From IMG/VR virus record IMGVR_UViG_3300025545_000003, positions 42,831 through 106,830 of that record: a stretch of 64,000 nt of DNA. One strand, written 5' to 3'. The notes under the pieces were generated by a model. That model saw only the letters and a program-made list of their open reading frames with translations. It was not told the DNA's origin and did not search any database. This document shows, one piece after another, positions 24,594-31,551 of the stretch. Origin of the DNA: a virus. Every line of letters begins with the position of its first letter. The stretch's first letter is position 1. A program made the translations under genes and the position numbers.

Positions 24594-24959
24594 TGGTGGA
24601 GGTGCGGGGAATCGAACCCCGGTCCTAAGATGCCTACGCCAACGCACTACGCTCATTTCCCGTGTTTATCCCGCACGGGCAAGGTGCTTCGATCCTCAAC
24701 GCACATGCTGCTGTTAGTCATCGCCTTCAGGTAGCCGCCTGCCCGCTATCCTGAACGCCAACCCGTTTCTGCTGTAACCTCACGCCCCGAATCGGGTGCT
24801 CTGACGTGAGAATGAAGCACCAGCACAGTCTTTCGACTACGCTGCCGCCTGCATCGGAAGGGTCTCGTTGGCAATTAAGCCTTTGCCGTCTGTAACGCCC
24901 GACAGCACTCGGAACGAACGTTTAGCCTCGTACACCCCAGTCGAAACCAGTACACCCCC
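24594..24959 (-). ncRNA. ssrA: tmRNA; tag peptide (A)ANETLPMQAAA
   Basis: 5' GGGGGTGTACTGGTTTCGAC; 3' GGTTCGATTCCCCGCACCTCCACCA with G3-U pair; tag frame 24872-24837 after TTAATT. Confidence 0.95.
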
Positions 24960-28094: not shown

Positions 28095-28149
28095 AAAGTG
28101 CGACCGGGGGGAGTCGAACCCCCACGCCTCAAAGGCACCGGATTCTAAG

Positions 28150-28229
28150 TGGCTGAGGTGGGAGTCGAACCCACACGCCCTAAGCGCCCGCCTCTAAAAC
28201 GGGTGCGTCTACCGTTCCGCCACTCAGCC
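28150..28229 (-). tRNA. tRNA-Leu(TAG), nested replacement copy
   Basis: GGCTGAG/CTCAGCC; CCCGT-TTTAGAG-GCGGG. Confidence 0.92.
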
Positions 28230-28724
28230 TTTTTCTTGTTTGGTCACGGAGGTCAACCCTTTGCTATTACACCACCCAGGTTGTTGGGAGTGGCAGTTAG
28301 GGCACAGGAATCGTAAGTTTTCAGGGCGGTTGTCTAACCAGTCTCGGTTGATGTGGTCCACCTGTAGCATGAGGGGTTTCCCGACCCACACTCCCTCGAT
28401 CCCACAAGATTCGCACGCATAGGGCCGCCCACTGTCAAGGAGAGCCCTCCGTAAGCGGTACGCTGCGGTACGCCTCCCTGTGTCCTTCTTTGACAGGGTA
28501 GTTAGCCACGGAGTCTTTCCCGGGCCTCCCTTATGGGCTGTTCCCTTGTTGGATCCTTGACCGTGGAAATGGACTGTGTCGAGTCCGTATTCCCGTACCT
28601 TACGGGTGATGTGCGTTTGTGTCCCGCCCGCCTGTTTCACCCCCAAATCTCGAAGCACGCCCGCCATGGAAGTGTTCTGTTGAACAAGTGGGGCTAGGAT
28701 CTCTTTTGTGTAACGTCGTCCCAT
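28224..28724 (-). CDS. HNH homing endonuclease
   Basis: CESCG...LQVDHIN...DNRPENLRFLCPNCHS. Confidence 0.92.
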   Translation of the reverse strand: MGRRYTKEILAPLVQQNTSMAGVLRDLGVKQAGGTQTHITRKVREYGLDTVHFHGQGSNKGTAHKGGPGKTPWLTTLSKKDTGRRTAAYRLRRALLDSGRPYACESCGIEGVWVGKPLMLQVDHINRDWLDNRPENLRFLCPNCHSQQPGWCNSKGLTSVTKQEKG

Positions 28725-28791
28725 ACACAGCTTACGGTATAGGCTAGCAACCGGAACCGGCGTGTCTACCGTTTCACCACGGTCGCAAAGG

Positions 28792-29635
28792 ATGACCACC
28801 CGTAGCCGGGATCCTGTTTTATGGACACATTCATCTAGTGGCCCCTACCCGTCCGCATAGCGCTGCTCACCCGCTCTTGGCCCAACCCCGATGCCGAGAG
28901 CGTTGCCCTGAAAAGAGCTTCTGCATTCCTTGGCGTGTAAGGCCGTGACGTTGGCAGAACAGATTGAGGGACGGGGTCACTTCGTGTTCAGCCCCGTCAG
29001 GAGAACGGACTTTGGGGTAGGGCTGCTTCTTCTTAGTGCGGCTGATCGCCGCCTTTTCCGCTTCCGTTGGGGAAGCCTTCCGACCACCCGATCCCACAGC
29101 GTTCTTATTGCCCCGCTGCAAAAGTGACAGGGCTTGCTTCGTTTCTTCTGTATGCTTGTAACCCAGGCTGTTGCCTGCTTCTGGGAGGATGTTGTACTTC
29201 TTGGCTTTCGGGGTCTTGTCCAACCACTCCTGTTCCTTCTCCAAGAGCTTGTCGTGGGCCGCCTGAACAAGCACAAAGAAGCAAATGTCCTCTTCACCCC
29301 TCTTGGCAAAGGCTCGTTGTAAGGGGGTGTTATGGTGGGTGCCTTTTCGAAGAAGCCTCCCATGTGCTGAGAACCTCTTGTAGAGATCCACTGCGGACCC
29401 GATGTAGAGCTTCCCCGAAGCCCTACTTCTGATGGCATAGACACCGCTCTTACCGTGTAGCGCAGAATAAGGGGTACCTTTCATGGAAGGGTCCAATTTC
29501 ATAGGCCAAAGATACCACGTTCCTGTTTGGGTTGCACCCTCGGAAGTGCGAACGGCCTACGGCCTCCTTCCTTCAGCAGTGGTGTCCCGAGCTTCCTCAC
29601 ATCCCTTGCGGGGTAGTGCGTGCCCTCAGTGGTCA
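28792..29635 (-). ncRNA. rnpB: Minimal RNase P RNA (~210 nt) interrupted by a GIY-YIG ORF
   Basis: GAGGAAGCTCGGGA (CR-I) pairs with ACAGGATCCCGGCTA (CR-V) as P4 with bulged U; P1 TGACCAC/GTGGTCA; P2 GGGCACG/TGTGTCC; AGATGAATG; GGGTAGG L15. Confidence 0.85.
28867..29502 (-). CDS. GIY-YIG homing endonuclease with NUMOD3-like motif (start may be 29484)
   Basis: SGVYAI...LYIGSA...R...E...YN; SLGYKHTEETK. Confidence 0.92.
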   Translation of the reverse strand: MKLDPSMKGTPYSALHGKSGVYAIRSRASGKLYIGSAVDLYKRFSAHGRLLRKGTHHNTPLQRAFAKRGEEDICFFVLVQAAHDKLLEKEQEWLDKTPKAKKYNILPEAGNSLGYKHTEETKQALSLLQRGNKNAVGSGGRKASPTEAEKAAISRTKKKQPYPKVRSPDGAEHEVTPSLNLFCQRHGLTRQGMQKLFSGQRSRHRGWAKSG

Positions 29636-29720
29636 TGGTGCCAGAGGGGGGACTCGAACCCCCACGCCTCAAGGACAGACGGTTTTGAACCGACCGCGTC
29701 TACCATTCCGCCACTCTGGC
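29636..29720 (-). tRNA. tRNA-Leu(CAA)
   Basis: GTCGG-TTCAAAA-CCGTC; ACCA end. Confidence 0.92.
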
Positions 29721-29821: not shown

Positions 29822-29893
29822 TGGAAAGGGGTGGAATCGAACCACCGACACGGGGATTTTCAGTCCCCTGCTCTACCTCTGAGCTACCCCTCC
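29822..29893 (-). tRNA. tRNA-Phe(GAA)
   Basis: GGGGA-CTGAAAA-TCCCC. Confidence 0.93.
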
Positions 29894-30294
29894 ATGCGTT
29901 TCCAGTCCCCGAACTCCTCCTTGCCGCCCCTGCACCCCCAGTCCGAGTCGATGACCAGGCGGGACGAGATCCCGCCACGGGGCCGGAGGTCCGCTACGAG
30001 GCGCAACCGGGCCGGTTCATAGACCGCCACGAGATCCTCGTAGATGACGTTGATGAGGCGTTCGTAGGAGATCACCTTGGACCTGAAGGCCACCACGTAC
30101 TCCTTGAGTGCCTTCAGTTCGATGATCCAGTCCGCCGGGTAGAAGACCAACGTCAGGTGACCGAAGTCCGGTTGCTGTTTGACGCCCATGAACGTCAACT
30201 CCGGGATCTCCATCCTGATCTCGTACCCGTCTGGGTCGGGGTTCGGCAGCCTCTTCAGCTTGTCCTTCTCCGACCACTTGTCATGCTTGCCCAT
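29884..30294 (-). CDS. QueF-like T-fold protein lacking the catalytic Cys
   Basis: PELT...QPDF...ELKALK-x-Y...FR...SYE...PRGGI; no Cys at the EFTSLCP position. Confidence 0.85.
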   Translation of the reverse strand: MGKHDKWSEKDKLKRLPNPDPDGYEIRMEIPELTFMGVKQQPDFGHLTLVFYPADWIIELKALKEYVVAFRSKVISYERLINVIYEDLVAVYEPARLRLVADLRPRGGISSRLVIDSDWGCRGGKEEFGDWKRMEG

Positions 30295-30333
30295 GTCGTT
30301 CCCCCTTGTTGTCCGGGGAACTATACCGATCAG

Positions 30334-30407
30334 TGCCAAGGGGCGGGATCGAACCGCCGACACCCCGGATTTCACCCGAGTGCTCTACCTACCTGAGCTA
30401 CCTTGGC
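30334..30407 (-). tRNA. tRNA-Phe(GAA), second copy
   Basis: CTCGG-GTGAAAT-CCGGG. Confidence 0.88.
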
Positions 30408-31497: not shown

Positions 31498-31551
31498 AAA
31501 GAACGGTGCTGGAAGCTGGGCAACTCCCAGCACCGAAGACCTACTATTCAA

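Follow-up and report, generated by a model that had tools for sequence, protein, structure and literature searches.

We report a phage-encoded homologue of RNase P RNA, apparently derived from the bacterial class A type, that lies within an array of tRNA genes, has little more than a stub in place of the specificity domain (S-domain) and is interrupted by a GIY-YIG homing endonuclease gene. RNase P RNA is seen as a ribozyme of cells and organelles, and we found no description of a phage-encoded one in the literature, including a 2024 RNase P review and RNA-discovery papers. The family to which this gene belongs is large and is carried by big phages inside tRNA arrays. The proposition as a whole, namely that large phages own an S-domain-less RNase P and that the copy described here would be functional despite an intron-less 639-nt endonuclease gene in its CCA-binding arm, as a combined mRNA and ribozyme or as a two-piece RNA, is one to which we give equal weight for and against.

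The gene and its place in a phage tRNA array

The window, by which we mean the whole 64,000-nt stretch of DNA that was analysed (C1:42831-106830), is part of a linear IMG/VR fragment rated 20% complete by CheckV, so that a genome of several hundred kb is implied. The contig has a GC content of 61.7% and carries 52 tRNA genes, 15 of them with an encoded CCA, plus a tmRNA gene. ARAGORN finds 23 tRNA/tmRNA genes in the window, and the interrupted gene sits inside a run of tRNA genes on its own strand. All features of the locus given below lie on the minus strand, with coordinates of the window.

Upstream lies tRNA-Leu(CAA) with an encoded CCA (29636..29720; ARAGORN, Rfam tRNA and sequence). The CCA ends at 29636, a step of 1 nt between the end of the tRNA and P1 of the ribozyme gene. 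The 5' half of the RNase P-like RNA follows (114 nt, 29522..29635), delimited by our covariance model (CM R1), nhmmer and motif coordinates. It comprises the 5' strands of P1 and P2, P3, CR-I with the 5' strand of P4, the 5' strands of P5 and P6, the S-domain stub and the 3' strand of P5, and ends with J5/15 (CAA), the 5' strand of P15 (CCC, 29531-29) and the 5' side of the L15 loop (AAACAG). Next comes an insert of 639 nt (28883..29521) that is missing from uninterrupted relatives and consists of a 19-nt leader and most of the endonuclease open reading frame (ORF); the gene itself encodes 211 aa (28867..29502; Pfam and 1mk0). The 3' half (90 nt, 28793..28882; CM R1, nhmmer and identity to the relative L219) holds the 5' strand of P16, P17 with the 3' strand of P6 in its loop, the 3' strand of P16, GGU, the 3' strand of P15, CR-IV, the 3' strand of P2, CR-V and the 3' strands of P4 and P1. 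The gene thus spans 844 nt, its RNA parts together about 204 nt. Six bases separate the 3' half from the 5' half of an older tRNA-Leu(UAG), which is itself split by an HNH cassette (28099..28799; Pfam HNH 4.7e-7, ARAGORN).

An earlier, sequence-only reading of this DNA had listed RNase P-like elements here, and by motif coordinates all of them are present on the minus strand. Its division into parts of 133 and 75 nt needs correction: homology to the RNA covers 114 nt (29635-29522) on the 5' side and 90 nt (28882-28793) on the 3' side. The insert includes the 19 nt ahead of the ATG, and the final 16 nt of the ORF double as RNA sequence (the 5' strands of P16 and P17 and part of the P17 loop).

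A family of miniature RNase P RNAs

Homology of both parts to RNase P-like RNAs is established. A profile and CM R1, built from 38 uninterrupted members only, match both halves far beyond chance: in the 64-kb window CM R1 scores 57.3 bits (E 4e-13) against the 5' half and 29.9 bits (E 2.6e-6) against the 3' half, and nhmmer aligns profile positions 34-118 with the former (E 2.3e-18) and 122-199 with the latter (E 1.5e-11). BLAST places the two parts next to each other in relatives, 3 nt apart, and profile positions 119-121 alone stay unaligned. Because the gene is split, the window gives no Rfam match to RNase P at the gathering threshold, nor at E<=10 on 28200-29700. By BLAST, the 5' half matches the 642-kb uncultured phage LR756502.1, in which an uninterrupted 205-nt element is found that matches Rfam archaeal RNase P (E 7e-7).

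Pattern scans located 7 loci in viral contigs and 87 stretches in metagenomes. Across 185,579 species genomes the same scans gave two real matches only, both on short contigs of metagenome-assembled genomes (MAGs), one of 5.6 kb assigned to Armatimonadetes (L231) and one of 45 kb assigned to Acidimicrobiia UBA5794 (L232). These sole species-genome members are probably phage DNA binned with hosts, and the binning may hint at host range. Altogether there are about 93 distinct family RNAs, with a median match length of 191 nt and a GC content of 34-60%. A tRNA gene lies within 500 nt of 57 of the 93, on the same strand every time, and within 60 nt of 43. The claim of a phage-borne S-domain-less RNase P RNA homologue within a tRNA array is supported.

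Rfam 15 has no family for this miniature RNA. Uninterrupted relatives match the full RF00010 model at 52-71 bits (E 1e-13 to 1e-19), under its gathering cut-off of 100 bits, because their specificity domain is a stub of about 30 nt; some 110 specificity-domain model positions are deleted in these alignments. One such ORF-less allele, of the kind that the sequence-only reading had proposed looking for in relatives, is L219. Among uninterrupted relatives it is the closest to the window's 3' half (94% identity over 54 nt); it matches RF00010 at 56 bits and, through that alignment, supplied the helix names used here; the nearest relatives of the two halves differ. Against the type T model, RF02357, the window gave no meaningful match (14.3 bits, E 2.6, inside the ORF only).

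Pairing is strongly maintained across the 38-sequence alignment. For the helices tested on it (P4, P5, the stub helices, P16, P17 and the P6 pseudoknot), standard pairs fill 96.3% of pair cells, as opposed to 25-41% in controls with the partners shifted by 1-3 columns, and compensatory changes occur in 21 of the 31 pairs, among them all five of the P6 pseudoknot. P15 (C-N-N with N-N-G) shows nine pair types, with full helices in 30% of a mismatched-partner control. P1 and P2 sequences vary from member to member in a best-helix search, which is noisy. As P4, P5, P6, P15, P16 and P17 covary within the family and the alignment to RF00010 covers the full model, on sequence grounds the family has the catalytic domain of class A, a stub of some 30 nt where P7-P14 would be, and an optional P18.

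Structure of the interrupted copy

The structure can be followed through both halves of the window's copy. P1 joins UGACCACU (29635-28) to GGUGGUCA (28800-28793) in 8 bp, and P2 joins GGGCAC (29625-20) to GUGUCC (28828-23) in 6 bp; P3 occupies 29618-29598. In P4, AGC-U-CGGGA (29593-85) meets UCCCG-GCU (28811-04) with all eight pairs and the bulged U in place. P5 (CACC, 29584-81, with GGUG, 29538-35) has its four pairs, and the P6 pseudoknot (CUGCU, 29579-75, with AGCAG, 28867-63) its five. P15 pairs CCC (29531-29) with GGG (28845-43) in 3 bp, P17 (28875-72 with 28862-59) is intact, and P16 (GGCC, 28882-79, with GGAC, 28854-51) has three of its four pairs and one G.A. The L15 GGU is at 28849-47. 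Conserved region CR-I with the 5' strand of P4 reads GAGGAAGCUCGGGAC (29598-84); CR-IV reads CUAGAUGAAUG (28838-28) and contains AGAUGAAU at 28836-29; CR-V with the 3' strand of P4 reads ACAGGAUCCCGGCUA (28817-03), with ACAGGA at 28817-12. P7-P14 of the specificity domain are absent, only about 42 nt lying between the strands of P5 (29580-29539), of which the stub takes 29571-42.

All family-invariant bases are kept in this copy, including those of CR-I, CR-IV and CR-V. Automatic alignment of the joined halves satisfies 27 of the 31 model pairs; by hand 30 are intact, the sole failure being the G.A in P16, a middle pair that is unbroken in all 38 aligned relatives. The five helices that bridge the halves (P1, P2, P4, P6 and P15) are all intact. 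Minimum-free-energy and cofold calculations on the window's RNA recovered P1 alone, and the gain from annealing the halves, -11.3 kcal/mol, did not differ significantly from that of shuffled sequences (-7.1 +/- 2.9). A candidate 9-bp helix that would close the ORF, UUUGGCCUA (29510-02) with UUGGGCCAAG (28884-76), was dropped because its partition-function probability is about 0 and its 5' strand is unconserved in L186, a relative with an insert at the same site.

The insert and its endonuclease

The position of the insert is fixed by the alignment of relatives: within the P15-P17 arm it separates the 5' side of the L15 loop (AAACAG) from the 5' strand of P16, which bears out the placing of the ORF in the P16/P17 region by the sequence-only reading. 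GG microhomology at both junctions leaves the boundaries uncertain by 1-2 nt. The ORF (29502-28867) matches Pfam GIY-YIG (PF01541, 3.5e-11) and NUMOD3. Its N-terminal domain matches the catalytic domain of I-TevI (1mk0, 2e-11), its tail weakly resembles the DNA-binding part of I-HmuI (1u3e, 0.002), and the translation shows the GVY, YIG, Arg, Glu and Asn motifs. Read from a second in-frame ATG (29484) the product would be 205 aa long, and an identical 205-aa protein is recorded on 54 contigs of up to 148 kb. The stop codon (TGA, 28869-67) falls within the conserved GGUGAGCA loop of P17 and, as had been noticed earlier, touches the 3' strand of P6 (28867-63).

There is no detectable intron. An Rfam search of 28200-29700 yielded neither a group I nor a group II intron at E<=10. 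The ORF is preceded by 19 nt of insert and followed by 0 nt that are not already RNase P sequence, too little to accommodate an intron core; the earlier remark that no group I intron core is visible around the ORF holds. The enzyme is, by prediction, an I-TevI-like, free-standing, non-intron GIY-YIG homing endonuclease, and we infer that it homes into insert-free alleles such as one resembling that of L219. Relatives of the endonuclease at 50 viral loci lack flanking RNase P halves, and a junction-specific pattern found no match in viral contigs. We also considered a cassette in which the endonuclease brings its own spare copy of the RNA gene or of its 3' half; the 106.8-kb contig contains neither a second RNase P RNA copy nor a leftover fragment.

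Other interrupted or expanded family members

Most family members are uninterrupted, and the exceptions are informative as to where inserts occur. L186 (660-1048, plus strand of a GC-rich metagenome contig) has a homologous GIY-YIG gene at the window's site. Its contig ends inside the ORF, so that the comparison covers the 5' half of the RNA, on one side of the insert. Between L186 and the window the endonuclease proteins are 53% and the ORF DNAs 55% identical, with third positions near saturation, and the 5' half of the RNA is conserved far better than the ORF. The leaders, too, are homologous (ACAGGA, four bases, GGUAU).

Genes of the LEM-3-type GIY-YIG/NUMOD3 kind interrupt two AT-rich members, L194 (134-784, minus strand) at the P18 position and L145 (938-1528, plus strand) in the loop of a small hairpin before CR-V. 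The L145 gene sits exactly in the hairpin loop with the stem retained, and its insert-free twin is L152/L158. In both members the TAA stop of the ORF overlaps the resuming RNA sequence, both sites are places where relatives bear optional hairpins, and neither protein has BLAST similarity to the window's endonuclease. Two further members are expanded without an ORF: L110 (10644-10979, plus strand) has a 128-nt inverted-repeat hairpin after the 5' strand of P16, in the same arm as the window's insert, and L052 (12726-12993, minus strand) has about 84 extra nt in the S-domain stub. Each expansion could be a mobile-element remnant or an ordinary expansion segment. Judging from the sites in L186, L194, L145 and L110, inserts are therefore seen only where relatives tolerate extra hairpins.

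Does the interrupted RNA work?

The reading that we favour, with slightly more confidence than doubt, is that of a working ribozyme whose ORF is looped out or whose RNA is in two pieces. The locus would then be a miniature class A-derived RNase P RNA gene, with the catalytic domain kept and the specificity domain a stub, in which a free-standing I-TevI-like GIY-YIG gene landed in the P15-P16-P17 arm, beside the CCA-binding L15 loop. We infer that the gene is transcribed together with the tRNAs. On the minus strand within the array (31497-26992) promoter-like sites are absent and a single weak terminator-like hairpin (27395-27381) is present, an arrangement that fits co-transcription. Processing of the tRNAs at the flanks would probably release the RNA from the transcript, with P1, P2, P4, P6 and P15 holding the halves together. 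The 639-nt ORF would either hang from the peripheral arm or be cut away to leave a two-piece RNA, and one transcript would double as the mRNA of the endonuclease. There is no rnpA-like gene in the fragment (about 20% of the genome), so the ribozyme would have to rely on a protein of the host. CCA is encoded in only 15 of the 52 tRNAs, and hence the contact between the L15 GGU and CCA would concern a minority of primary transcripts.

Tolerance of the insert is favoured by the intact bridging helices together with the homologous GIY-YIG gene at the same site in the diverged L186, and by the unrelated GIY-YIG genes that L194 and L145 carry at peripheral sites elsewhere in the RNA. It is also favoured by a contrast within this genome: the endonuclease cassette inside tRNA-Leu(UAG) comes with a replacement tRNA, whereas the RNase P insert has no spare copy in the 106.8-kb contig. 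Against a working ribozyme stand the G.A mismatch in P16, at a middle pair never broken in 38 relatives, the contact of the insert with the loop that binds the tRNA 3' CCA, and thermodynamic folding, which predicts no helix closing the ORF (probability about 0). The same three observations suit a history in which a recent endonuclease invasion broke a dispensable phage RNase P gene, host RNase P processes the phage tRNAs, and the halves look intact only because there has been too little time for decay. Such a dead allele, which we take seriously and consider unlikely, would also agree with the uninterrupted majority of the family and with the freedom with which homing endonucleases of this genome enter RNA genes. 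It accounts less well for L186, where a protein only 53% identical occupies the window's site and the RNA half is still well conserved, for the confinement of inserts to peripheral positions at which relatives have optional hairpins, for the survival of every invariant base and 30 of 31 pairs, and for the record of an identical endonuclease protein on 54 contigs. Repeated recent homing into intact alleles could be an alternative source of the well-kept flanks.

The insert might instead be removed from the RNA, by splicing or excision-ligation that escaped detection, to give a continuous ribozyme of about 204 nt. I-TevI-type enzymes are classically intron-encoded, and both the match to 1mk0 and the ending of the ORF exactly at re-entry into conserved RNA sequence would accord with removal. 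We hold this to be very improbable, given that Rfam shows neither group I nor group II introns in 28200-29700 at E<=10, that 19 nt upstream of the ORF and none to spare downstream leave no space for an intron core, and that the GIY-YIG-bearing insertions in rRNA genes of CPR bacteria are all likewise without intron similarity (PMC11270868). A change of role is somewhat easier to entertain, and still improbable: the RNA could descend from RNase P and serve the infection in another way, as a decoy for host RnpA or a tRNA-binding scaffold, in which case catalysis need not have survived the insert. The reduction of the S-domain to a stub, the scores of the family under the Rfam cut-off and the lack of a phage rnpA in the fragment would all be in keeping with that. 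Yet the entire catalytic core is conserved or covarying (CR-I, CR-IV, CR-V, the bulged U of P4, the L15 GGU and P6), cores without an S-domain are catalytic (PMC5839562, PMC3579882), and the tight same-strand linkage to tRNAs fits a role in processing. If the favoured reading of a working ribozyme is true, the peripheral loops of a trans-acting ribozyme would be a refuge for endonuclease genes, as those of group I introns are.

Comparison with known systems

With bacterial class A RNase P RNA (RF00010; E. coli M1 RNA/rnpB) the phage RNAs share CR-I, CR-IV and CR-V, P1-P5, P15 with the L15 GGU, P16-P17 and a P6 pseudoknot formed by L17 with the strand that follows P5, and uninterrupted relatives align with RF00010 end to end. 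They differ from it in their length of about 200 nt, in the stub of about 30 nt that replaces P7-P14, in the optional P18 and in being phage-encoded, and the window's copy differs further in its interruption by a protein gene. The E. coli C-domain alone is catalytic, with a P6-like pairing required and P18 dispensable (PMC5839562), and the Thermoproteaceae have natural RNase P RNAs without an S-domain, known as type T (RF02357; PMC3579882). Type T and the engineered C-domain-only ribozymes resemble the phage RNAs in having little or no S-domain; unlike type T, the phage RNAs descend from bacterial class A and not from an archaeal type. A widespread phage version nearly devoid of a specificity domain would serve as a natural test of the minimal catalytic core, and a phage RNase P RNA would join tRNAs and tmRNA in the translation toolkit of large phages.

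As for the insert, the window's enzyme has the catalytic domain and NUMOD3 motif of I-TevI and other intron-encoded GIY-YIG enzymes of T4-like phages, and its ORF, like theirs, is lodged in a structured RNA and ends at re-entry into conserved RNA. Unlike theirs, it is without a self-splicing intron, and the RNA that hosts it is RNase P, of the trans-acting class of ribozymes. The sequence-only reading called this an unusual refuge for a homing endonuclease, a fair description that has to be qualified by a published analogue, the non-intron GIY-YIG insertions at the tips or bases of stem-loops in 16S and 23S rRNA genes of CPR bacteria (PMC11270868). These are the closest published analogue of the window's insert: in both cases a GIY-YIG gene lies in a structured-RNA gene without intron similarity, here one for RNase P RNA in a phage. 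What becomes of the CPR insertions (removal, fragmented rRNA) is better understood than what becomes of the window's insert (PMC11270868).

The interrupted allele poses the question of whether a protein gene can sit in a peripheral arm of a trans-acting ribozyme or whether a natural two-piece ribozyme has arisen, and the further question of whether intron-less endonucleases persist in RNA genes through the survival of structure-compatible sites only. Since insert-bearing and insert-free relatives are both known, ribozyme activity and homing are each testable with synthetic genes. T4 SegB is a free-standing phage homing endonuclease in a tRNA cluster, sited between genes. Like SegB, the window's enzyme is a GIY-YIG protein encoded in a phage tRNA region and expected to spread by cutting alleles that lack it; unlike SegB, its gene is inside an RNA gene. 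Free-standing phage homing endonucleases in tRNA clusters are also treated elsewhere (PMC13096335).

Neighbouring genes

The split tRNA-Leu(UAG) downstream of the RNase P-like gene is preserved in two older halves (28786-28757 and 28150-28099) that, when joined, fold as a complete tRNA-Leu(tag) in ARAGORN; the replacement tRNA-Leu(UAG) carried by the HNH cassette lies at 28149-28229. For the HNH ORF, listed as 28799-28224, the internal ATG at 28724 is the probable start. Further along the minus strand, a few kb from the tRNA array, is the tmRNA gene (24594-24959; Rfam 121.5 bits), with the tag ANETLPMQAAA. Between tRNAs of the array there is a QueF-like ORF (29884-30375, minus strand; Pfam 7e-21), whose listed reading frame overlaps tRNA-Phe at each end. 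The first tRNA of the array is immediately preceded, also on the minus strand, by a strong terminator-like hairpin of 14 pairs followed by a T-rich tail (31504-31535).
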